The position numbers and the translations under genes are program-made. A stretch of DNA of 64,000 nt from the NCBI GenBank assembly GCA_963666365.2, contig CAXXNF010000001.1, positions 192,001 to 256,000 on the forward strand. Direction: 5' to 3'. The notes under the pieces were generated by a model. That model saw only the letters and a program-made list of their open reading frames with translations, was not told where the DNA came from and did no database searches. Positions 17,208 through 35,742 of this stretch are shown here, in pieces; the stretch's first letter is position 1; each line of letters begins with the position of its first letter. This stretch comes from Syntrophales bacterium (GTDB lineage: Bacteria; Desulfobacterota; Syntrophia; Syntrophales; UBA2210).

Positions 17208-19268
17208 TCACGACTCCTCGACTTTTTCAATGCGGCACATAAAGTTTCGTCCCGACGCAGTGCCGATGACCGGATTGCGCCGATCGTCGTCGGTCATGAG
17301 ATTCAGACTGTAATCAGGCTTATAATCCCCCCACCCCCAGGCAATGCGAAGAACCCCACGGTGGATGACATTCGAAATCGCGGCCCTCATGCGCACCCGG
17401 CCGCGCGGCGTGGCAATCGTCACCCAATTCCCTTCACGGACGGCGTACTCTTGAGCGTCATCGGGATGGATGTCTACCACGCACCCTCGTTCCTGCTGCA
17501 AAAGGGACGGAATCATGCGGTACTGGGAATTGGTAAAACGCCTGTTGCGGGCGCCGCTGATCCCCAGGAGCGGATAGTGATCTGCCTGATCCATGAAGCT
17601 GACCGGTTCCTTTTCATGGCCGCGGGCGAAGGGAACCGGATCATGGCCATGGGCGCTCAACTGTACGGAAAAAAATTCAACCTTGCCGCTGGGCGTTCCG
17701 AATCCATTATCCTTGTACTTCTGATATTGTACCGGTTCGGCCATAATTCCCTCGGGATGTTCCCGCAGCATCGCCACGGTGATCCCCGCCGGTTCAAGCT
17801 GGTAATCGATCGCCTCTTCCGCAGTGCACCAGGGGAATTCTTTTTCCAGTCCGATACGCCGTGCCAGATCAAAGGTAATCTGCCAGTTCGGCCGACTGTC
17901 CCCTACCGGGGCAATCACCTGTTCCTGAATCCGCACAGGGCTTGAACGGACAAAGGCGCGGTTAAGCTGGGTGTGTTCAAAACAACTACCGGCGGGAAGA
18001 ATGACGTCTGCCATTTCTGCAGTTCCGTTCATGAACATATCGATCACCACGAGAAATTCCACCTTTTCCAGTGCCCGTCTTGCCCGGCCTGCATCCATGA
18101 AGGTGACCGCGGGATTTCCCGACTGGACAATCAGGGTTTTAATCGGGTAAGGTTTTTCTTCCAATATGGCGTCAATCACGCAGGACTGCACCTGATTTCC
18201 CCAGTTGCTGTGGAAACGATTGAAAAGATGGTACTCCGCGGTAACAGGCGCAACGGACGCGGGAAGTCGCTCCCGCAATTGCAGATTCCGGTTCGGAACG
18301 GTCTGCGGGATGAGATCGCCGCCCATGATGTCCAGATTGCCGGTGAGGGCGCGCAACATGGCCACCGCCCGTGTGGCGTCAAACGATTCAAGCTGCATAT
18401 CCAGGCCGTTGCCATCAACAATACAGGCCGGTTTGATCGACGTGTACACCCTGACGGCTTCTTTGACCAACGCCCGATCCAGCCACAACGTGTCTGCAAC
18501 TTTTTCAATCGGGTAGTGTGCTGCCGTCTTTTTCAATTCCTCGAAACCGACGGTCCACTGTTCCACGAACTCGTGATCAAATAAATCATGGGAAATAATT
18601 TCATTGATCATCGCCATGGCCAGCAGGCCGTCATGGGCTGGTCTGATCTGAAGCCAGATGTCGGCCATCTCTGCGAAATGCGTTTTCACCGGATCGACCA
18701 CAATCAGCGTTGCCCCGTTTTTCTTTGCCAGAAGGATGCTCTCAGCCGCATTGGGCGCCGTATCCCGGTCATTTTTCCCCCAGATCAGCATGCATTTGGC
18801 CTGCAGCGGCTGGGGTATCGTCATGGCGCCGTAGACGGCGGTGTGGGCAAAATCACGCCCCACGAAGCATATCGATCCATTTCCGATGCTGTTGGGAGAC
18901 CCGTAGGCATTCATCAGCCGGTTCACATAGTCCCAGGGCGCCCCCCAGTCCGCCGCCATGCCTCGCAACCAGCATACCGATTGCGCGCCATACTCTTTCT
19001 TGCAAAAAAGCATTTGCCGGGCGACGCGATCCATCGCTTCGTCCCAGGACGCCTCTCTGAAGCCGCCGTCACCCTGTTTGATCAAAGGCGAGACAAGCCT
19101 CTCGGAAGAATAAATGATGTCGGCCGCAGCGCTGAGCTTCGGGCAGAACAGTTGCTGATCTTCGGCAAGTGCCGATTTTCTTCTGGCCGAGATCCATCTT
19201 CCTTCTGCAGTCTCCACTTCTATGGGACAGCAGGCCGAACATAAACGGCAGACAGAGTGCGTTTGCAT
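17208..19268 (-). CDS. Molybdopterin-dependent oxidoreductase (DMSO-reductase superfamily), cytoplasmic
   Basis: CRLCSACC...CPK Fe-S motif, ASWDEA, GSICF candidate metal-ligand Cys, GNLDIMGG, TAEMADVILP, TPSGKVEF, IHPDDA; no Tat signal. Confidence 0.9.
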   Translation of the reverse strand: MQTHSVCRLCSACCPIEVETAEGRWISARRKSALAEDQQLFCPKLSAAADIIYSSERLVSPLIKQGDGGFREASWDEAMDRVARQMLFCKKEYGAQSVCWLRGMAADWGAPWDYVNRLMNAYGSPNSIGNGSICFVGRDFAHTAVYGAMTIPQPLQAKCMLIWGKNDRDTAPNAAESILLAKKNGATLIVVDPVKTHFAEMADIWLQIRPAHDGLLAMAMINEIISHDLFDHEFVEQWTVGFEELKKTAAHYPIEKVADTLWLDRALVKEAVRVYTSIKPACIVDGNGLDMQLESFDATRAVAMLRALTGNLDIMGGDLIPQTVPNRNLQLRERLPASVAPVTAEYHLFNRFHSNWGNQVQSCVIDAILEEKPYPIKTLIVQSGNPAVTFMDAGRARRALEKVEFLVVIDMFMNGTAEMADVILPAGSCFEHTQLNRAFVRSSPVRIQEQVIAPVGDSRPNWQITFDLARRIGLEKEFPWCTAEEAIDYQLEPAGITVAMLREHPEGIMAEPVQYQKYKDNGFGTPSGKVEFFSVQLSAHGHDPVPFARGHEKEPVSFMDQADHYPLLGISGARNRRFTNSQYRMIPSLLQQERGCVVDIHPDDAQEYAVREGNWVTIATPRGRVRMRAAISNVIHRGVLRIAWGWGDYKPDYSLNLMTDDDRRNPVIGTASGRNFMCRIEKVEES

Positions 19269-19295
19269 GGAAATAGTCCTCCCTTTGATATAGGT

Positions 19296-20237
19296 TCAGC
19301 GTGTGGCCTTTATATAACAGCTTCTGATGTGCTCATAGTGGTTGGCGTGGGTCCGTATGTGCCACCAGAGCTGCCCCTCTTTTTCAATGTTCCAGGGTGG
19401 TTGCAAAATGTCATTCTCCCCCGCCAGGAGTTTCATGATATGCGCTTGTCCCCGCAAGGTGTAGGGCCCTTCACTTTGTCCCCCCAGCCAGTTGTGTTCC
19501 GGCGCCGCCTCTTCGGACCAGGAAAAGGGATCGGAAAGCAGGAACTGCGCGTTCTCATCTCCGGTCACACGGTTCATCTCCTTTAGATGCATCAGAGGAT
19601 CGGGAACCTTATCCACCAGATTCAGCGAGGCAAAAGAAGATGCCATGTTCGCCCTGAAGGGCAGGGCCAGTGCGTCGGCAACAATAAATTCCGCCTTTTG
19701 ACTGTCCCAGTCTTCCGGTATTGCGAACTCGACAGTCCGGGTCAGCCATCCCTCTTCTTTCAGTGTGATGGTCCTGCGGCGATTCAGGAGAAGGTCTCTG
19801 GCCTCACGGATAAAGGCCCGCGCATTGTCCACCCCGATCACAAAGTCGCATTTACCCGTCATTTCAAAAGCAAACCGGCCGACGGCAGTCCCGACGTCAA
19901 TACAGATACCGGCATGGGGGCGCATCACCTCGCTCCAGCGCCGGTAGGCATCGGAACTGTTCTCCTCCTTCAGGAGATCTCCGTAGTGGCTCCAGAGATA
20001 GGACGACACCACGGCTGGGGTCTCATATTTGTTATGAAGGTATGCCTGCGAGGGGTGCAGTGCCGCATCGAGCAATGCGACGCCCTGTTCAATGCGATAT
20101 GCTCTGCCGCAGGCGGAACAGGTAAGGGCGCCCGTGAGAATATCGTCCCCCCGTTTCTCCTGAATCGCTTCTTTCAGCCGGTGTTCTTCCGGCAGGCACA
20201 CCGGACAGATCAGCAGCTCAAGCAACCGTTCCTTCAT
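19296..20237 (-). CDS. SAM-dependent methyltransferase with N-terminal Trm112-like Zn ribbon; resembles the OvoA C-terminal methyltransferase
   Basis: LLICPVC..LTCSAC..Y.I..GV; YETPAVVSSYLWSHYG; DVGTAVGRFAFE; NLVDKVPDP; SDPFSWSEE..NWLGG. Confidence 0.8.
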   Translation of the reverse strand: MKERLLELLICPVCLPEEHRLKEAIQEKRGDDILTGALTCSACGRAYRIEQGVALLDAALHPSQAYLHNKYETPAVVSSYLWSHYGDLLKEENSSDAYRRWSEVMRPHAGICIDVGTAVGRFAFEMTGKCDFVIGVDNARAFIREARDLLLNRRRTITLKEEGWLTRTVEFAIPEDWDSQKAEFIVADALALPFRANMASSFASLNLVDKVPDPLMHLKEMNRVTGDENAQFLLSDPFSWSEEAAPEHNWLGGQSEGPYTLRGQAHIMKLLAGENDILQPPWNIEKEGQLWWHIRTHANHYEHIRSCYIKATR

Positions 20238-20381: not shown

Positions 20382-20410
20382 AGTATATGGAGATGGAATA
20401 TCCCTGTCAA
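20382..20410 (-). promoter_or_regulatory. Sigma70-type promoter of the methyltransferase operon
   Basis: TTGACA-17 nt-TATACT on the minus strand, about 145 nt upstream of the ATG. Confidence 0.7.
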
Positions 20411-20819: not shown

Positions 20820-21974
20820 TTAAAACTCGAAGGCCAGTCTTGCAAACACCTCGTCCGCGGTATCCTGTGCGGCGCTGCCGGCTGCCTTTTCATAATTGCT
20901 CCTGCGATATTCGATCATGAGCGTGGTTGCGAAATCGCCCTTTTCAAAGAGCCTGTAATTGGCGCCGAGAGAGGATCTGTTCTCCAGATGACCGTCCTGA
21001 TCGCCGTCAATATCGTCATCGAAGGCCTCATAGCGGACGGCTATTTCCAATGGATCCGTTACTTGAAAGGCAAGTGCGGCAAACCATGCGGATTCCTTAT
21101 ATTCTCTCCCATCCGTCGTGTGCAGTTCCCGTGCAACCGCAGCGATATATTCGGCATCGAAGGTAACCATTCCAGCCTGATACGCTATTGATCCACCCAC
21201 TGTGGTATTGCGATCCTGCTGTCCCGGTTCCGAATCGAAATACACGCTGAGAGACAGTCCTTCCAGGGGCGCCATAGACAGATTAAGGACATAGGAATTG
21301 ACGTCATCGGTCGGATCTGGGTTCGGATCGGGATCCCTCGTCCATCCATAGGCTGCCGCGGAAACCTTGTCCGCCAGCACCTCTCCCTTGTATATCGTGG
21401 CCGATACATCAAGCCCCCCTACAGCGTGGGTCAGGCCGATTGTCGCCCCGGTTTTGACGATTTCATAGCAGTCCTGGGTAATGGGATCATTGATGAAGTG
21501 GCTGTTGAACACCCCAAAAGGCTGCGTCCGCTTACCTCCGACGAAATACAGGGGGAATCTCTCCTTTTGTATGGTTATCATGGTTTCGTCCCAGAATACC
21601 CGATCGTCTTGGTCGAGGTTTTCTCCCTTGAGGGTTACATTGCCCGTTACCCACTCATTAAATTTCACTTCCAGGCCCAGTTCGGCTGTTCCGATATCGA
21701 ACTCCGAAGAGGAATCGCTGTCTGCATCGTTCAGATTCCTCGGATCCGTATAACTGAAATCCAGCTCAAGGGCGCCGGATATGCTGATTTTATCCAGCCA
21801 GGCTGCCGCCAAACCGGCGGAGGCGCCCTTTTCGATCTTCTGTTCTATTTCCATCACCTTTTGCGCAAGGGCATCGTTCGACATGGCGCCAATGGCCGGC
21901 GGGACAACCGCCAGCGCTACGGAACACACCACGCACACCACAGTTAACAATTTAATATTACGAATTTTCTTCAT
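20820..21974 (-). CDS. Outer-membrane porin, LbtU-like
   Basis: Signal peptide, short coiled coil, ISGALELD, QPFGVFNSHFINDP, terminal ARLAFEF beta-signal; GGAGG before ATG 21974. Confidence 0.8.
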   Translation of the reverse strand: MKKIRNIKLLTVVCVVCSVALAVVPPAIGAMSNDALAQKVMEIEQKIEKGASAGLAAAWLDKISISGALELDFSYTDPRNLNDADSDSSSEFDIGTAELGLEVKFNEWVTGNVTLKGENLDQDDRVFWDETMITIQKERFPLYFVGGKRTQPFGVFNSHFINDPITQDCYEIVKTGATIGLTHAVGGLDVSATIYKGEVLADKVSAAAYGWTRDPDPNPDPTDDVNSYVLNLSMAPLEGLSLSVYFDSEPGQQDRNTTVGGSIAYQAGMVTFDAEYIAAVARELHTTDGREYKESAWFAALAFQVTDPLEIAVRYEAFDDDIDGDQDGHLENRSSLGANYRLFEKGDFATTLMIEYRRSNYEKAAGSAAQDTADEVFARLAFEF

Positions 21975-22077
21975 GTACTTTATCCTCCATTGCATAATCA
22001 TCAATAAAACAAACTCTTGTTCCCGTTGCATGTATCACCGCATAGCGCTCGGTGATGCATTTCATCGGATATTTCAT

Positions 22078-22140
22078 AAAAAAAAGACGCCATGTTCTCT
22101 GTATGATTACAGTTATCCATGCGTCTTCACTTGTTCCGCC
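22078..22140 (-). terminator. Terminator/attenuator-like hairpin upstream of the porin
   Basis: AAGACGCATG...CATGGCGTCTT running into a T8 tract on the minus strand. Confidence 0.65.
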
Positions 22141-22199
22141 CTCTGTCGGACCCGTAAGTTCGCTTTTTTATAAAATTACCTTGATATATCCATTTCGCC

Positions 22200-23003
22200 C
22201 TACTTCATATCTCTGGCCTGCACCCAAATCACCGCATCCTGCGACAATTCCTTGCCTTTATAGTCTTTGTCCGGTCCGACTCCGAGGGCGCAAAATCCCC
22301 ACCAGCCGGCCCTGGGAATACCGAAAGAGAATTCACCGTTCACATTGGCCTTTATGGTCATGGTCACAAAGGCGTCCTGAGGCGCTTCCACTTCCGCTCG
22401 GGCGGAAAAAGCGTTCTTGTCCGGTTGCGGTTGGTGATTCATGTACTCCACCTCGATTTCCGCATAGGGAATGGGTTTGCCGTCGCTCAGGACGATTCCC
22501 CGGAACACGTTGCCGGTCCAGAGTGCATAGGGTTTGTCAAGCGGAACTATTTCCGCAGGAAGGCCGATCTTTGCATCCCAATCCGTGGGAAACCCACCGG
22601 TATTGACAACCATTTTGCTAATCTGCTGAATATAGCAATTCTCTTCCTTCTCCAAATACGGCGCCGGCACCAGACAGAATACATTGTCTCCCATGCCGCG
22701 CAGCTTGTACGTCGTCTCATAGGCCGCACCGCTGTTGGTAAGGCTGGTCCAGGAAATCGGCTTGACCGTTCGGAGCAAATCTTCTTTCTTTCCCTTGCGC
22801 ACTACAAAAAACTGTTCCGGCGCACCCATGTCCATAGTATGCCCCGCTTCGAAAGGGTGAGTGAAGACAAGTTTAAGGTCAATGGCCTCTGCCTTTCCCA
22901 ATGCCGATTCTGGCGTGTAAATCATCTGGAAATGGGCAAATGCCGGACCGGTCATACACATCATCATTCCAACCAACATAATAATTGCTTTTTTCATAGA
23001 CAC
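22200..23003 (-). CDS. DUF4198-family periplasmic metal-uptake protein
   Basis: Signal peptide then AHFQMIY, VFTHPF, EIVPLDKPY, VFRGIVLSDGKP, GWWGFCAL. Confidence 0.85.
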   Translation of the reverse strand: MSMKKAIIMLVGMMMCMTGPAFAHFQMIYTPESALGKAEAIDLKLVFTHPFEAGHTMDMGAPEQFFVVRKGKKEDLLRTVKPISWTSLTNSGAAYETTYKLRGMGDNVFCLVPAPYLEKEENCYIQQISKMVVNTGGFPTDWDAKIGLPAEIVPLDKPYALWTGNVFRGIVLSDGKPIPYAEIEVEYMNHQPQPDKNAFSARAEVEAPQDAFVTMTIKANVNGEFSFGIPRAGWWGFCALGVGPDKDYKGKELSQDAVIWVQARDMK

Positions 23004-23033
23004 TTCTCCTTATTCTTTGTTTGATTTGGCAAT

Positions 23034-23357
23034 TTATTCAGCAATATCGTTCCCTTCTATCTCCACGACATGCCCCGGACCGGCGTCAAAATAAATCTTA
23101 TAGGGAACGGAAGGCTTCTCGAAGGTAAATTCACTGTTTTTATCCATTTTCCCATTGTTCAGCACCTTCCCCTGAACATCTTCCACACGCATCTGTACTC
23201 CCGAGGCCGAAGAGCCGTCCGAGAACCCGCCCTCGCACGTGACTGTTCCATCTCCGTTGTCGTAACAGGAGCAGAGCGGCGTATGGGCAATCACCCGGCC
23301 GGGCATTATGAATGCCAACGCCAGAATCCCCATAATTACTATTTTTTTTCTACACAT
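23034..23357 (-). CDS. Small periplasmic protein, Feo/DUF4198-associated
   Basis: Signal peptide, AHTPLCSCYDNGDG..CEGGFSDGS, FDAGPGH. Confidence 0.75.
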   Translation of the reverse strand: MCRKKIVIMGILALAFIMPGRVIAHTPLCSCYDNGDGTVTCEGGFSDGSSASGVQMRVEDVQGKVLNNGKMDKNSEFTFEKPSVPYKIYFDAGPGHVVEIEGNDIAE

Positions 23358-23375
23358 CTTCTTTCCTCCTCTCTC

Positions 23376-25844
23376 TTATTCATGTTCGGATTTGTTTTTC
23401 AAAAAACCGGTTGCAATCGTCAGCGCCAAAGCTACGCCAAAAAAAGCGCCCATGGCCTGAAGCCCGGAAAGACCGAGCGCGCTCCCTCCTGAAAAGATCA
23501 GGCTTGCCGTCGCCAATCCCAGCGCCATGGGATAGACGATGGAAAAGAGCATCCATTTAATGGAACCGGACTGCAGTTTTACGGCGATGGCCGTGGCGAT
23601 GCAGGGCGGATAGAGCACCATGAACAGCATCAGCGCCAGGGCGTGCAGGGACGTAAAGCCCGCTTCACCCCTGGCCATGCGCTGCTCCAGGGCTTCCCCC
23701 TCTTCTTCCGCTTCATACAGCGCCCCAAGGGTGGCCACGCTGCTCTCCTTGGCGGCAAGCGCGCTCAGAAGGGCTACATTTACGCGCCAATTAAAACCGG
23801 CCGCCTGCGTGACCGGTTCCAGCCATTTCCCCAATTTTCCCAAAAAACTGGTATCGATGCGTTCCTGTCGCATGTGGCGTAGAAGATCCCTTCGCTCATT
23901 AAAGAGAGTTTTGAAGGCACGATTGACCTTCCCAGCAGCCTTGTCCGTTCCCGGCTGCACAATGCGGAAAAACACCGGATCACGCGATTCAAAGCGGGCA
24001 TTGAGCGCGGCAACCGCTGAACTGTCCGATTTCCTCATTTTGGCATTCTTGTAGTCATTCCAGTAGAGCACGAGATCCATTATCCGTTCGCCCTGCAGGT
24101 CTTTCTCATAGGATGTACCGTTCACCTTACTGAGAAACACGCCCAAGGCCTTGTCCTTTTCCGCGTGGTAATAGGCCATCCTCTCCTGTCCGATGCCGGG
24201 GAACTGCAGCAACACGAACAGGACCACCGCAACGGCCGCCACAACCGTCGTAATCTTTCTCAGAAACAGCCAGACCCGTTCCAGGGCGCGTCCCAGAACA
24301 CCGCGAACCGAGGGAAGGTGATATGATGGCATCTCCATGACAAAGGGCGCTGTTTCTTTCTTTCTCAAAACGGTCAACGTCAAAATTTTTGCGGTAGGAA
24401 GCACCAGAAGCAGGCTGATGGTGCTTATGAAGAACATGGCCAATCCTTTGTGCGCCGCAAAATAGATATTTATCAAAAGGACATACAGGGGCACCTTGGC
24501 CAGGCAGTTAAGCATCGGAATAATTAAAATGGTGGCAAGCCGCGACCGTTCGTCGGGAATGCCCTTACAGGACATCACACCCGGTACCGCGCAGCCGCCC
24601 ACGTAAATGCCTCCCAGCACCATGGGCAGTGTTGACTGACCATGGAGCCCATAGCGGCTGAACAGTCGATCCATGATAAAGGCCATCCGAGGCATGTAAC
24701 CGCTGTCCTCCAGTATGGCGATAAGACCGAAGAGAATGAAAAAAATGGGAATATAGTTCAGCAGGGCGTTAATGCTGTCGACACACCAGAGCGTAAAAGA
24801 CCGGATCAGCGGTATTTCTATGAACCCGGGATTCGGAGTAACGGCTTCGGCCACACTTCTCAGTGTGGCAAGAAGCGGCCACGTGTAATTGGTGACATTA
24901 TAGCCCTGCACAATGGAAAGATAATACAGCAGCCAGATGACCGTCAGAAGGATAAGCGGTCCGAGGAATTTGTGGCAGACAAAGCGGTCTATGAAATCGG
25001 TCGCTCTGCCCCTGCTGTTCGTTTCGTTCGTAACACAGGATGCAGATATTTCATCGGCCCTTTGATAGCGACGATGGGCAATATGCAGTTCAGGCATCTC
25101 GCCGTGTTCATGTTCGAAATCTTTTCGCAGTTTCTCGACGAATTCAAAGAATGCTGCGGATTGGGCATGGGCATCCTCTATCAGGCGCTTCGCCTCGCCA
25201 TCGCCCTCCATGAGTTTAATGGCCAGCCATCTCAGAGGATAGTGCACCGCCAGAGTGGTTTCAGACGCAAGCCGTTCACTGATGTCGCGCAGAAAAGGCT
25301 CCATATCGCCGTAATCAATGCGAACCGCCTTCGCAGGTTCTACCCCATCCAAGGCAGCATCAATGGCTTTGAGCAAATTCTGCTTCCCGGAACCGTTTTT
25401 CATGGACGTGGGAACGACAGGAACTCCTATCGTCTTCGAAAGCTTTACAACATCTATTTCGGCGCCGCTCCGTTTCGCCACGTCCATCATGTTCAGATTC
25501 AATATAACGGAAATGTCCATTTCCAGTAGCTGAAAAGTAAAGTACAGACTGCGCTTCAGATTCGACGCATCTACGACATTGATGGCAACTGCCGGGTTCT
25601 CATGAAGAATGAAATCTCGCGTGACTCGTTCTTCTGGAGAATAAAAAGTAAGGCTGTACGCACCGGGAAGATCAACCACTTCCACCCTGACACCGTTATA
25701 TCGATACCATCCGACCATCTTGTCCACGGTTACGCCGGGATAATTGGCCACGTGCTGGCTCGCACCGGTAAGTGCATTAAACACGGTGGACTTGCCGCAA
25801 TTAGGCTGTCCGGCAAGAGAGATCAGGTACTTTTGGCCTTTCAT
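23376..25844 (-). CDS. feoB: Ferrous iron transporter B
   Basis: GQPNCGKS, NYPGVTVD, DLPG, NMMD GTPase motifs; LEDSGYMPR gate; PCIAT. Confidence 0.97.
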   Translation of the reverse strand: MKGQKYLISLAGQPNCGKSTVFNALTGASQHVANYPGVTVDKMVGWYRYNGVRVEVVDLPGAYSLTFYSPEERVTRDFILHENPAVAINVVDASNLKRSLYFTFQLLEMDISVILNLNMMDVAKRSGAEIDVVKLSKTIGVPVVPTSMKNGSGKQNLLKAIDAALDGVEPAKAVRIDYGDMEPFLRDISERLASETTLAVHYPLRWLAIKLMEGDGEAKRLIEDAHAQSAAFFEFVEKLRKDFEHEHGEMPELHIAHRRYQRADEISASCVTNETNSRGRATDFIDRFVCHKFLGPLILLTVIWLLYYLSIVQGYNVTNYTWPLLATLRSVAEAVTPNPGFIEIPLIRSFTLWCVDSINALLNYIPIFFILFGLIAILEDSGYMPRMAFIMDRLFSRYGLHGQSTLPMVLGGIYVGGCAVPGVMSCKGIPDERSRLATILIIPMLNCLAKVPLYVLLINIYFAAHKGLAMFFISTISLLLVLPTAKILTLTVLRKKETAPFVMEMPSYHLPSVRGVLGRALERVWLFLRKITTVVAAVAVVLFVLLQFPGIGQERMAYYHAEKDKALGVFLSKVNGTSYEKDLQGERIMDLVLYWNDYKNAKMRKSDSSAVAALNARFESRDPVFFRIVQPGTDKAAGKVNRAFKTLFNERRDLLRHMRQERIDTSFLGKLGKWLEPVTQAAGFNWRVNVALLSALAAKESSVATLGALYEAEEEGEALEQRMARGEAGFTSLHALALMLFMVLYPPCIATAIAVKLQSGSIKWMLFSIVYPMALGLATASLIFSGGSALGLSGLQAMGAFFGVALALTIATGFLKNKSEHE

Positions 25845-26764: not shown

Positions 26765-27322
26765 TCACCCCTCATTATCTTCATTGTCACCCAAATCAAT
26801 CTGGCTTCTAAATTCACAGGAAAACGCTGCGCCGTTCTTTCGACATTTGTCAGGATCGCAGCCCTGCTGCCGGTATTCCTCGAAATAGCGAAGCCAGCTC
26901 TCGCCGGTTCGTGGGCATATCTGAACAAATTCCATAAAGTCCGTCAACGTTGCCAGCGTTGAGGCACTGAGTATATGCTCCATTTTGCAGGCCTCTTCGT
27001 CGGCAACGGTGCCTTCGATTCGCAATATTTCAGTCAAAAACCTGCGCAATGCTTCGTGCCTGCGGCGCATCTCCTTTCCGACGGCGGCTCCGCTTTTCGT
27101 CAGCTCTACATATTCATATCGTTCGTAATGGATCAATCCATTATTTTTCAATGTTTTCAACATGCTGGACACGGTGGGCATCTTGACGTTCATCCGCTTG
27201 GCGATATCTTTGACGCGCACCACCCTTTTTTCCTTATCGAGATCGAAAATGGTTTCCAGATAGTCTTCCATGACCGACGTCAAAGGTTTCTCATCCTCTT
27301 TTTTTTCATTATGGAGTATCAC
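26765..27322 (-). CDS. DtxR/MntR-family metal-dependent transcriptional regulator
   Basis: MEDYLETI, VRVKDIA..VKMPTVSSML, RRHEAL, EEACKMEH; Cys-containing tail. Confidence 0.93.
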   Translation of the reverse strand: MILHNEKKEDEKPLTSVMEDYLETIFDLDKEKRVVRVKDIAKRMNVKMPTVSSMLKTLKNNGLIHYERYEYVELTKSGAAVGKEMRRRHEALRRFLTEILRIEGTVADEEACKMEHILSASTLATLTDFMEFVQICPRTGESWLRYFEEYRQQGCDPDKCRKNGAAFSCEFRSQIDLGDNEDNEG

Positions 27323-28984: not shown

Positions 28985-29588
28985 ATGGGAAAAATCTTTC
29001 TTGAAACGGTCCGTTCGGAGAGATTGGCGCACCTGTCCTATGTGGTCGGTCGTGGCGGAAAAGCGGCCGTCATCGACCCCCCGCAGGGACAAACGTCGAT
29101 ATATGGACATCGCCTACCGCTATCCCGCACACGGCGCCGGTTCAGTGTGCGGGGCCGGCATGGCCGATCGGAAGTTTACCACACTGGGCTACGAACGAAG
29201 GCACAACCCTGTCTTGCGGAACACAAACGAGGGACTGCATGCATGGCAAATCAGCGGACGCACCTACGATCAGATACCTGCCGTTCACGCCTCGGAATTG
29301 GTCAGGAGAATCCAATCCGAAGAAAGCTTTACTCTTCTGGATATCCGCAAAATCGACGAATATGAAGAGAGACGACTGCCCGGTGCGGTCCATATCTTTC
29401 TGGGGGAACTTCCGGAAAGGCTTAACGAGATTCCTAAGGATCGGCCTGTCGCAACTTTTTGCGGCAGCAGCCAGCGGGCCATCATCGTCGCATCGATTCT
29501 GAAACAACATGGCTTTACAATGGTGGAAGACTCCCTGGGATCGATGGCGGCATGTCAGGCTATCGGCTGTCCTATAGTAGCGCGCTGA
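28985..29588 (+). pseudogene. MBL-fold hydrolase/rhodanese fusion, frameshifted and internally deleted
   Basis: LAHLSYVV..AAVIDP in one frame; +1 shift in the C6 run at 29077-29082; then RRD..YPAHGAGSVCG..TTLGYERRHNP and a rhodanese domain (FCGSSQRA); metal-binding region missing. Confidence 0.8.
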
Positions 29589-34110: not shown

Positions 34111-35742
34111 TTATTTGCCGAAATGACAGAGGGGATAGACGCAGGTTTCGCAGTTGAGGCAAAAGCCGCCGTGCCCCAGGCGGGCAAGATCCTGCCGTGT
34201 GATGTCTAGTCCCGCCAGAATACGAGGGACAAGCACATCGAAACTGGTCGTCTTGAAGTAGAGCGCGGCGGCGGGGACGCCAATCAATTGTACGTTTCCT
34301 ATCCGGCCCGTCAGGGTCATGGCGCCAGGCAGAATCGGAGCACCGTAAACACTATCGACGGCGCCGGCATCGAGAAGTCCCAGACGGGTAACATCGTCAG
34401 GATCGACGGAAAGCCCTCCTGTCGTAACCAGAAGGTCGATTCCTTCACCGATCAGCTCGGCCACCCCTTCGGCAATGGCCTTTCGGTCGTCGGGAACGAT
34501 GCGGCTGTGAAAGGTTTCACAGCCCAGCTTCGTCAGTTTGGCCCGAATAAGCGGCTCAAAGCGGTCTTTCACAAGCCCCTTCGCCACTTCAGTTCCCGTC
34601 ACCAGTATGCCCACAACAGCCTTTCGAAGCGGCAGCACTTTAAACAGAGGAGCGCCGGCAAGCACCTGCATGGCCCTGTTAAAATTATTTTTCGATATAT
34701 ACAGTGGAATTGCCCGAGTTGCACCGATGCCGGAATCCGCCGACACGTACGTCCCGCTTCTGCGGCTTGCGCACATGACATCGGGAAGCAGGTTAAAAGA
34801 GGCAAGGCGTTCGACGTCTATGCTCAAGTAACCGTCTCTTTCTGCGTAAAAGGTTATTTTCCCTTCGCTCGGTGTCTCATTATGGCTTATCCCCTCCCCT
34901 GCCATGGCAGCGGCAAAGGCGCGGGCCGCGTCGTCTTCGTGAACCCAGTTTGCATCCGGCTCGCCCATTTCTTTGACATAGACACGTTCCCTCCCCATTG
35001 TGCGGAGCATGTCTATATCCTCGGACCTGACCACCTGATTATGCCTGAAGGCAGGGCCTTTTGCCTCGAAGGGAACAACCCGCGTCATATCGTGAAGACC
35101 GGTTTTCCCCAGAGCGTCCTCCACGGCAAGGGCTTTCAGCTCGGGGCCGGCCTCTCCCCCGGAGGGATCCTGCACCTGATAAGGGATTGCATCGCGGCAC
35201 CCCTTGCACAGGTCGCCGTCCCTGCCCGGGTAGGCCTCGCCACAGAGAGGACAGATGACGATTGTTTTGCCCTTGCTTCTTTTTTCCATAAATTTCGACT
35301 GTATTGCAACCCGCTGCGAGCCGAACATTTGATAGCCTGCATCTTTTATCTGATCGAGCAGCACCTCCAGATCCTGTTCTCTTTTCGGTTTGAGTTTCAG
35401 GAACCAGTTTTTGATTTCCGGCCAGTTGTCCAGTTTGGCCGCGTCGAGAAAGACTCGCACTCCGTTGCCCCCATATTTATCATAGAGGGTAACGGCATAG
35501 CGGCCGAGATCGACGATCTTCAACCAGCCGTTGCCGATGGTGCAGGGCGTGAGAAGCTGGACGGCATCGGGAAGGCAGCTGGGTGTTTCGCAGATCGCGT
35601 CACAGAGCGCCTCTTCCGGCATCTGGCTTCGCGCATATTGCACCATAAAACCACCGATGACTATGCCGGGAGCAACACTCCCGTGAAAGGATTTCGCCAG
35701 TTGGATATATTCTTCAAAGGAATAAATTCCTACATTCGCCAT
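34111..35742 (-). CDS. FmdE-domain / Zn-finger / MoeA-like molybdopterin-binding fusion
   Basis: FHGSVAPG..CLPDAVQLLTPCTIGNG, CPLCGE..CKGC, LHDMT, TGGLSVDPDDVT, PILPGAM, GHGGFCLNC..C. Confidence 0.88.
   Translation of the reverse strand: MANVGIYSFEEYIQLAKSFHGSVAPGIVIGGFMVQYARSQMPEEALCDAICETPSCLPDAVQLLTPCTIGNGWLKIVDLGRYAVTLYDKYGGNGVRVFLDAAKLDNWPEIKNWFLKLKPKREQDLEVLLDQIKDAGYQMFGSQRVAIQSKFMEKRSKGKTIVICPLCGEAYPGRDGDLCKGCRDAIPYQVQDPSGGEAGPELKALAVEDALGKTGLHDMTRVVPFEAKGPAFRHNQVVRSEDIDMLRTMGRERVYVKEMGEPDANWVHEDDAARAFAAAMAGEGISHNETPSEGKITFYAERDGYLSIDVERLASFNLLPDVMCASRRSGTYVSADSGIGATRAIPLYISKNNFNRAMQVLAGAPLFKVLPLRKAVVGILVTGTEVAKGLVKDRFEPLIRAKLTKLGCETFHSRIVPDDRKAIAEGVAELIGEGIDLLVTTGGLSVDPDDVTRLGLLDAGAVDSVYGAPILPGAMTLTGRIGNVQLIGVPAAALYFKTTSFDVLVPRILAGLDITRQDLARLGHGGFCLNCETCVYPLCHFGK

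Follow-up and report, generated by a model that had tools for sequence, protein, structure and literature searches.

A paired OvoM-like methyltransferase and molybdenum/tungsten enzyme as a candidate oxygen-free cassette for an ovothiol-type amino acid in a Syntrophales bacterium

The C-terminal domain of OvoA and the stand-alone enzymes OvoM and OvsM are S-adenosylmethionine (SAM)-dependent N-methyltransferases of the imidazole ring, acting on 5-thiohistidine and 5-selenohistidine. Formation of the ovothiol C-S bond needs O2 in every published route that we found, and an oxygen-free route of the ovothiol type would fill this gap. For ergothioneine two oxygen-free routes exist, one through EanB and one through the metallopterin-dependent synthase MES. 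According to Beliaeva and Seebeck (2022, PMC9516567), MES is defined by a molybdenum module fused to an Aminotran_5 domain and encoded next to EgtD, and it sets the precedent for formation of a C-S bond on an imidazole by an enzyme of this molybdopterin superfamily. Here we analyse a stretch of 64,000 nucleotides, called the window, from a Syntrophales bacterium (assembly GCA_963666365.2, contig CAXXNF010000001.1, positions 192,001 to 256,000), in which a gene for an OvoM-like methyltransferase, P0001, is directly followed by a gene for a molybdenum or tungsten enzyme, P0002. We propose, with a probability of about 45%, that the two genes form one oxygen-free cassette for the synthesis of an N-methylated thio- or seleno-imidazole amino acid of the ovothiol type, whose substrate, regiochemistry, sulfur source and product we infer.

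Both genes lie on the minus strand. The first (19296..20237) encodes the 313-residue P0001 and the second (17208..19268) the 686-residue P0002, a predicted cytoplasmic enzyme with a bis-molybdopterin guanine dinucleotide (bis-MGD) cofactor, referred to below as type 1. The 27-nucleotide gap between them (19269..19295, minus strand) carries a GGGAGG ribosome-binding site, and a Shine-Dalgarno-like AGGAG or GGGAGG precedes each gene of the cassette. This is the two-gene arrangement described in a first-pass annotation made from the sequence letters, and its identification of the products as a Trm112-fused methyltransferase and a molybdopterin enzyme agrees with the Pfam domains of both: Trm112p and Methyltransf_11 in P0001; Molybdop_Fe4S4 (PF04879), Molybdopterin (PF00384) and Molydop_binding (PF01568), with no Aminotran_5, in P0002. 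In P0001 a Trm112-like zinc ribbon occupies residues 1-54 (20076..20237, minus strand), the match to PF03966 covering residues 2-52 with 38.6 bits against a cut-off of 22, and its cysteines C11, C14, C40 and C43 are invariant across 24 sequences of the family. The methyltransferase domain (residues 68-313; 19299..20036, minus strand) bears the YET..YLWSHYG helix and the PFSW..WLGG motif that are common to OvoA C-domains.

The only meaningful methyltransferase match of P0001 among NCBIfam models is TIGR04345, the OvoA C-domain (80.2 bits, E = 1.6e-22, profile positions 1-232 of 242); the next methyltransferase family comes at E = 0.029, and the second-best TIGR04345 match in the same genome reaches 23.5 bits. 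When 300 Gammaproteobacteria were scored against this profile, twelve true OvoA proteins were found at 251-351 bits, together with three outliers at 75-96 bits, one of which is an orthologue of P0001. By its score P0001 is therefore a member of a sister family of the OvoA C-domain, OvoM and OvsM, and not OvoA itself. The grouping with OvoA C-domains by hidden Markov model score that had been anticipated therefore stands insofar as this is the nearest family and the match is full-length, but the curated equivalog cut-off of 170 bits is not reached. In a search of PDB sequences the best matches were OvsM (3e-16), the OvoA_Th2 C-domain (6e-12) and OvoM (3e-11), and in a FastTree phylogeny of 118 sequences the P0001 family is monophyletic with respect to OvoA C-domains (support 100). 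More than 1200 homologues, mostly of 313 residues, are present in the protein collection, the best 120 being 53-92% identical to P0001 and nearly all of that length. The ESM Atlas returned only generic methyltransferase and molybdenum-enzyme clusters for P0001 and P0002.

The predicted fold points in the same direction. An AlphaFold2 model of P0001, built from 24 homologues (mean predicted local distance difference test score 88), was compared with the PDB using Foldseek, and the top ten matches belong to 8khq, 9bxh/j/k and 9bxl/m/n, which are OvoA, OvsM and OvoM structures (E 2e-19 to 7e-17; template modelling scores of 0.78-0.85 when normalised to the stand-alone OvsM and OvoM targets). The next match, at E = 2.7e-9, is eight orders of magnitude weaker, and the lower matches are assorted class I methyltransferases, mostly small-molecule N-methyltransferases (NNMT, PNMT, CARNMT1). 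When 24 P0001 homologues were aligned with 11 of the 12 true OvoA C-domains, 30 positions proved invariant in both groups, many of them outside the SAM motifs; they include Y71 E72, Y80, H84 Y85, N206 L207 x D209, P237 x x W240 and W250 x G252 G253. All the motifs that had been picked out by eye as following the OvoA pattern align with the 11 OvoA C-domains, namely YETPAVVSSYLWSHYG at 71-86, DVGTAVGRFAFE at 114-125, EEG at 161-163, NLVDK at 206-210 and PFSWSEE..NWLGG at 237-253. The accessible portions of the OvoA_Th2 paper contain no mention of substrate residues of the methyltransferase domain.

These results bear on another account of the locus, according to which the cassette modifies a different small molecule. 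The molybdenum/tungsten enzyme would hydroxylate, hydrate, reduce or sulfurate some other heterocycle or a sulfur, selenium or arsenic compound, the methyltransferase would cap the new N, O, S or Se, and the likeness to OvoM would reflect common descent only. The score of P0001 short of the OvoA C-domain cut-off and the nature of its next fold neighbours favour such an account, whereas the 30 common positions, which include two non-Rossmann motifs, argue against it.

The pairing of the two genes was followed in other genomes. Scanning a single genome per species, we found 232 relatives of P0001 and analysed the best 80 with their loci. A full orthologue of P0002, 52-78% identical, lies directly downstream on the same strand in 62 of these 80 loci, at a distance of 6-241 nucleotides (median 45); in the other 18 the molybdenum gene is cut by the contig end (5), fragmentary (3) or absent (8), or there is no room to tell (2). 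Expressed otherwise, a molybdenum gene is found directly downstream in 70 of 78 assessable loci, three of these genes being broken. The conservation of the pairing, on which the first-pass reading had depended, is thus real though not obligatory. Elsewhere in the phylum, 400 further genomes were sampled evenly and two candidates scored per genome, so that the counts are a floor: the methyltransferase family is present in at least 37 and an orthologue of P0002 (E up to 1e-150) in at least 13; it adjoins the methyltransferase in all 13, and none of the sampled genomes has the molybdenum orthologue alone. The distribution is patchy; in the window's own order, none of the 13 genomes sampled has the cassette. 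When five genomes with loci devoid of the molybdenum gene were searched, four had only paralogues of at most 35% identity and one had an orthologue on another contig. Cultured carriers of the locus include Syntrophus buswellii DM-2 (L066), Desulfobulbus elongatus DSM 2908 (L078), Desulfogranum japonicum DSM 18378 (L073), Desulfobulbus rhabdoformis DSM 8777 and Desulfogranum marinum DSM 2058.

Some individual loci deserve mention in their own right. In two gammaproteobacterial loci, from Thiotrichales and an unclassified metagenome-assembled genome (L028:1317-1875 and L045:1234-2688), the methyltransferase is intact, but the molybdenum gene is either broken or has a helicase gene in its place. 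A single 550-residue metagenome protein, P0273, joins a methyltransferase to the start of a molybdenum enzyme; it is one sequence on one contig and could therefore be a join made in gene calling. A prediction of the complex between methyltransferase and molybdenum enzyme, both supplied as alignments, gave a score of 0.01 and is counted neither way.

P0002 itself starts directly with its cluster motif and so has no twin-arginine (Tat) leader. The Fe4S4 motif C7-x2-C10-x3-C14...C42, which contains an additional invariant Cys13, is encoded at 19143..19250 (minus strand), and the flanking genes are unrelated, with no Fe-S or membrane subunit genes adjoining P0002; the absence of a Tat signal and of partner subunits noted at first pass was therefore confirmed. 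The best PDB matches are acetylene hydratase (2e7z, 278 bits) and then PsrA (2vpw, 203 bits). The four cluster cysteines and Cys134 (codon at 18867..18869, minus strand; invariant) align with those of both structures, Cys134 falling on the cysteines of SAMYMC in 2e7z and of SVSLC in 2vpw, which we take to be metal ligands, and it is the predicted Mo/W ligand of P0002. For acetylene hydratase, a cysteine metal ligand is stated in PMC9516567. Cys13, Cys134, Cys678 and a polar loop, WLRGMAADWGAPWDY, are conserved in P0002 and 52 orthologues; the Cys13 (CC) pair and the WLRGMAADWGAPWDY loop are absent from the 44 representative relatives listed. In-frame TGA codons in three molybdenum orthologues, considered as possible selenocysteine codons, proved on translation to be terminal stops.

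The same METHYLTRANSFERASE family has other partners, as became clear at the loci of 24 sampled genomes in which the methyltransferase occurs without an orthologue of P0002. In the methyltransferase tree, a clade of 87 (support 95) holds the type-1 sequences, 13 of them with no molybdenum gene alongside, and those of a second arrangement, type 2, another clade (support 100), whereas those of a third arrangement, type 3, and the lone methyltransferases are unresolved at the base of the family. Type 2 was found in 6 of the 37 methyltransferase-bearing sampled genomes (L120:3023-6198, minus strand; also L121, L122, L130, L138 and L139). Here a methyltransferase 35-43% identical to P0001 (P0275, the one scanned, scores 112 bits with TIGR04345) is directly followed by a molybdenum enzyme of 735 residues, P0274, which has no desulfurase module and is 29% identical to P0002.

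For comparison, MES sequences were reached through a search for EgtD, which occurs in 36 of 401 sampled genomes; among 30 EgtD loci listed, at least 16 are flanked by the end or start of a P0274-like molybdenum enzyme. Larger stretches at eight of these loci revealed, in seven, a frame of 1127-1166 residues adjoining EgtD (L172-L178, e.g. L174:3794-8211, minus strand), and all four of these proteins that were scanned consist of a molybdenum module fused to Aminotran_5, three of three scanned neighbours being PF10017 (EgtD) proteins. Over the full length of P0274, the molybdenum modules of MES share 47-50% identity with it (681-744 bits). In a FastTree phylogeny of 65 molybdenum modules, acetylene hydratase, PsrA and the Caldithrix MES sequences being outside the set, MES and type 2 form one clade on a long stem with a support of 100, each being monophyletic. 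Since its molybdenum enzyme is the sister of MES, the type-2 pair is probably the strongest candidate for a molybdenum-dependent synthase of the ovothiol type.

Type 3, found in seven genomes, consists, on one strand, of a B12-binding radical-SAM enzyme, a CHAP-repeat peptide, the methyltransferase (42-47% identical to P0001) and usually an M19 dipeptidase (L126:1980-7384, minus strand; also L123, L128, L129, L132, L134 and L136, and partly L118 and L124). The radical-SAM enzyme has 672-686 residues (446 at one contig end), and its best family is ApyD, an enzyme of peptides that are made by the ribosome and modified after translation (RiPPs), at 250 bits, below the cut-off; its C-terminal part gives weak matches resembling RiPP recognition elements (RREs). 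The peptide, of 36-61 residues, combines a leader with between four and ten repeats of CHAP[A/S/E], of which the final one is frequently CHGP; an ATG start with a strong ribosome-binding site is present in five of the seven loci, no ATG start having been found in L126 and L128, and the match to the NCBIfam 'Cys-every-fifth RiPP peptide CefA' reaches 19.5 bits against a cut-off of 30. As a whole, type 3 resembles a RiPP cluster. The M19 dipeptidase is also present in two additional loci whose sequence starts at the methyltransferase, and in nine of the 24 genomes the methyltransferase stands alone.

By association, these two other partners, a MES-sister molybdenum enzyme and a radical-SAM enzyme with a peptide in which neighbouring Cys and His are the sole reactive residues, tie the family to oxygen-free chemistry that puts sulfur on histidine, which also argues against the view that the cassette serves some other small molecule. 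The simplest common reading would be that members of the family methylate a histidine ring substituted with sulfur or selenium, the three partners being alternative oxygen-free makers of that ring; P0002 would then be a non-orthologous replacement of the partner. A wider proposal, possible but rather doubtful, would have the methyltransferase family mark three oxygen-free routes to thio- or selenohistidine, the P0002 clade represent a second, independent invention of Mo/W-dependent C-S (or C-Se) bond formation on imidazole, and the product be a low-molecular-weight thiol so far overlooked in sulfate reducers and syntrophs.

The type-3 clusters also lend themselves to a different interpretation, in which the methyltransferase acts on a histidine or a Cys-His cross-link within a peptide or protein, either the molybdenum enzyme itself or an unlinked peptide, and the zinc ribbon is a protein-binding module. 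Trm112 proteins serve protein and RNA methyltransferases as partners; the ribbon of P0001 matches NF038101 with 46.5 bits, below the cut-off of 77, and methyltransferases 42-47% identical to P0001 stand directly after a radical-SAM enzyme, whose C-terminal part gives RRE-like matches, and a peptide of Cys-His repeats. Yet neither the window's own genome nor any locus of type 1 or type 2 yielded a Cys-His repeat peptide; a conserved small open reading frame (ORF) sought upstream of the type-1 methyltransferases came down to out-of-frame shadows of neighbouring genes; and the nearest solved relatives act, to judge from their PDB titles, on free amino acids. We consider a peptide or protein substrate decidedly unlikely.

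If the two-gene cassette does make an ovothiol-type amino acid, the following sequence of events can be envisaged. P0002, with a sulfido ligand or persulfide-derived sulfur on its cysteine-ligated metal, would place sulfur on a ring carbon of histidine. Since no desulfurase is fused or adjacent, the sulfur would be drawn from the pool of sulfide or polysulfide in these sulfur-cycling anaerobes, possibly by way of the family-specific Cys13. The OvoM-like methyltransferase would then methylate a ring nitrogen with SAM.

The genomes were also examined for other thiohistidine genes. The window's own genome, which is 94% complete, has no match to TIGR04344 (the OvoA N-domain) over the cut-off, the best reaching 36 bits, and no match to PF10017. 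In the mostly anaerobic phylum, true OvoA (684-719 bits) is present in 9 of the 401 sampled genomes, and EgtD is absent from all 19 sampled type-1 or type-2 genomes. The co-occurrence of the pair with a lack of OvoA, proposed earlier as a check, was found in 12 of the 13 sampled pair-bearing genomes; the thirteenth, G470, has a true OvoA. In three related genomes (G376, G476 and G619) a true OvoA is accompanied by a lone, unlinked member of the Trm112-fused methyltransferase family that could there perform a second methylation step.

This distribution is relevant to a further possibility, namely that the molybdenum enzyme, instead of forming the C-S bond, reduces or salvages a thio-imidazole that has been oxidised or imported (such as an S-oxide or a disulfide), or removes or exchanges sulfur, the methyltransferase finishing a precursor made or acquired in another way. 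Most characterised members of the superfamily, as seen in the family matches of P0002, are reductases of S- or N-oxides, polysulfide or thiosulfate, and methyltransferases devoid of a molybdenum partner exist, three of them in OvoA-bearing genomes. Moreover, MES exchanges sulfur between ergothioneine and trimethylhistidine, according to PMC9516567. A salvage role nevertheless appears very unlikely: with 12 of the 13 sampled pair-bearing genomes free of OvoA over the cut-off, and none of the 13 having EgtD, there is no evident source of the precursor, and no transporter gene is conserved beside the pair.

Several observations weigh against the proposal that the cassette makes an ovothiol-type product. 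The expectation that P0002 would group with MES was not borne out. Its identity with the MES modules is 28-30% (258-285 bits), which places it as far from MES as from acetylene hydratase (278 bits); in the molybdenum tree, type 1 forms, with P0123, a separate clade elsewhere in the radiation (support 100); and it carries one of the 48 positions that mark MES and type 2 and are rare in paralogues. The type-1 active site clearly differs from the one in MES. Searching 1.8 billion representatives gave 13,976 relatives of P0002 at E up to 0.001, the best 150 of which score at least 299 bits and are all uncharacterised, and more than 150 uncharacterised clusters at 50% identity are nearer to it than MES or acetylene hydratase. 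No third conserved gene and no sulfur donor were found beside the pair in the 80 loci, in keeping with the first-pass remark that no sulfur-donor gene is adjacent. In addition, P0001 falls short of the OvoA equivalog cut-off; within the type-1 clade, 13 of 87 methyltransferases stand without a molybdenum gene beside them, which means that the methyltransferase can persist without a P0002 partner; G470 combines a type-1 pair with a true OvoA; and the radical-SAM and peptide context of type 3 points to a peptide-bound substrate, so that the substrate of the family need not be a free amino acid.

The place of P0002 within this large radiation of cytoplasmic enzymes of about 690 residues, and its lack of the MES signature, also favour the modification of some other small molecule; taking these together with the shared OvoA positions and the two other partners, we regard that account as unlikely. 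As a separate observation, the three longest of the best 150 relatives of P0002 are fusions to other domains, none of them a desulfurase; among the fusions, P0254 carries an FNR-like NAD/FAD/2Fe-2S module and P0262 a BtrH_N/DUF4872 part. No desulfurase fusion was found among the 30 nearest ESM Atlas matches.

The surroundings of the cassette in the window were also inspected. A sigma-70-like promoter candidate, TTGACA-17-TATACT, with 11 of 12 consensus matches, lies about 145 nucleotides ahead of the P0001 start codon (20382..20410, minus strand). The own promoter claimed for the operon is thus present as a near-consensus site, but the number of promoter-like sites in the cassette region is not above the shuffled expectation, which makes such a promoter plausible only. 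Rfam searches, of the whole window at the gathering score and of the 5' region at E up to 1, gave nothing relevant in the leader, and a tRNA scan found none. Downstream, the neighbour is a convergent gene for a PAS histidine kinase. Directly upstream, on the same strand, is a metal-uptake context (20820-25844, minus strand, and 26765-27322) with a 403-residue protein without Pfam family, a DUF4198 protein, a 107-residue ORF and FeoB, and with a DtxR-type iron-dependent repressor nearby; the arrangement of the FeoB, DUF4198 and 403-residue genes is not conserved in other genomes. Farther away, a 543-residue FmdE-MoCF_biosynth fusion (34111-35742, minus strand) and, about 9 kb from the cassette, a rhodanese-domain protein of 195 residues (29001-29588, plus strand) may be helpers in cofactor or sulfur handling; neither shows linkage to the pair in other genomes.

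An oxygen-free route of the ovothiol type was found nowhere in the literature searched, which took in neither subscription journals nor the supplementary PDFs of the MES paper. The accessible portions of PMC12631010, PMC13674229 and PMC13603875 describe none, the literature on ovoselenol and 5-selenohistidine holds nothing relevant by title or abstract, and a search combining thiohistidine with radical SAM gave no match, though the wording '5-thiohistidine' may escape it. If the proposal is true, it would extend C-S bond formation by Mo/W enzymes beyond the one case known so far, and could put a name to a redox-active thiol of sulfate-reducing and syntrophic bacteria. It also offers a functional lead for one clade among the many cytoplasmic Mo/W enzymes of unknown role. 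PMC9516567 reports MES to be active when expressed in E. coli, and this, together with the two-gene size of the cassette and its cultured carriers, makes the idea directly testable.

How, then, does the locus compare with the systems already described? With the OvoA C-domain, OvoM and OvsM (PDB 8khq, 9bxl-n and 9bxh-k), P0001 shares the fold, the YE..Y...HYG helix and the P-aromatic-x-W...W-x-G-G motif, but only about 19-24% identity with the solved chains. P0001 has a fused zinc ribbon, for which OvoM (273 residues) and OvsM (267 residues) are too short, and whereas the OvoA system relies on a non-haem-iron sulfoxide synthase, the P0001 family was never found beside one in the surveyed loci. 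The radical-SAM, Cys-His repeat peptide and M19 cluster contains the same Trm112-fused methyltransferase family, but with a radical-SAM partner and no molybdenum enzyme.

On the side of the molybdenum enzyme, acetylene hydratase (2e7z) and P0002 are of the same size, cytoplasmic, and alike in the Fe-S motif and in the position of the cysteine ligand. They differ in that acetylene hydratase has an aspartate beside the second cluster cysteine, presumably with a catalytic role, whereas P0002 has there an invariant serine, Ser11, which aligns with Asp13 of the hydratase, and has in addition its invariant polar active-site loop; P0002 was therefore rejected as an acetylene hydratase. PsrA/PhsA (2vpw; NF012032), a sulfur-handling molybdenum enzyme, has the cysteine ligand in common with P0002, but it comes with a Tat leader and PsrB/PsrC-type partners that P0002 lacks. 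With no leader, no B or C subunit genes and 270 bits against an NF012032 cut-off of 694, a respiratory reductase of the Psr, Phs or dimethyl sulfoxide type was likewise set aside, in agreement with the non-respiratory, cytoplasmic character ascribed to the enzyme at first pass. MES and P0002 are both predicted to be cytoplasmic modules of the acetylene hydratase-like bis-MGD kind, with an N-terminal four-cysteine cluster and a cysteine metal ligand, and both are encoded in strict anaerobes beside a methyltransferase directed, putatively so for P0001, at histidine. MES, however, has a fused pyridoxal phosphate-dependent cysteine desulfurase and EgtD as its partner, whereas P0002 has neither and is paired instead with an OvoM-like methyltransferase; the true sister of MES is P0274 of type 2. 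Seen against these systems, the cassette would, on a reading that we hold tentatively, join molybdenum-dependent thio-imidazole biosynthesis, which is already known, to a methyltransferase of the OvoM type.

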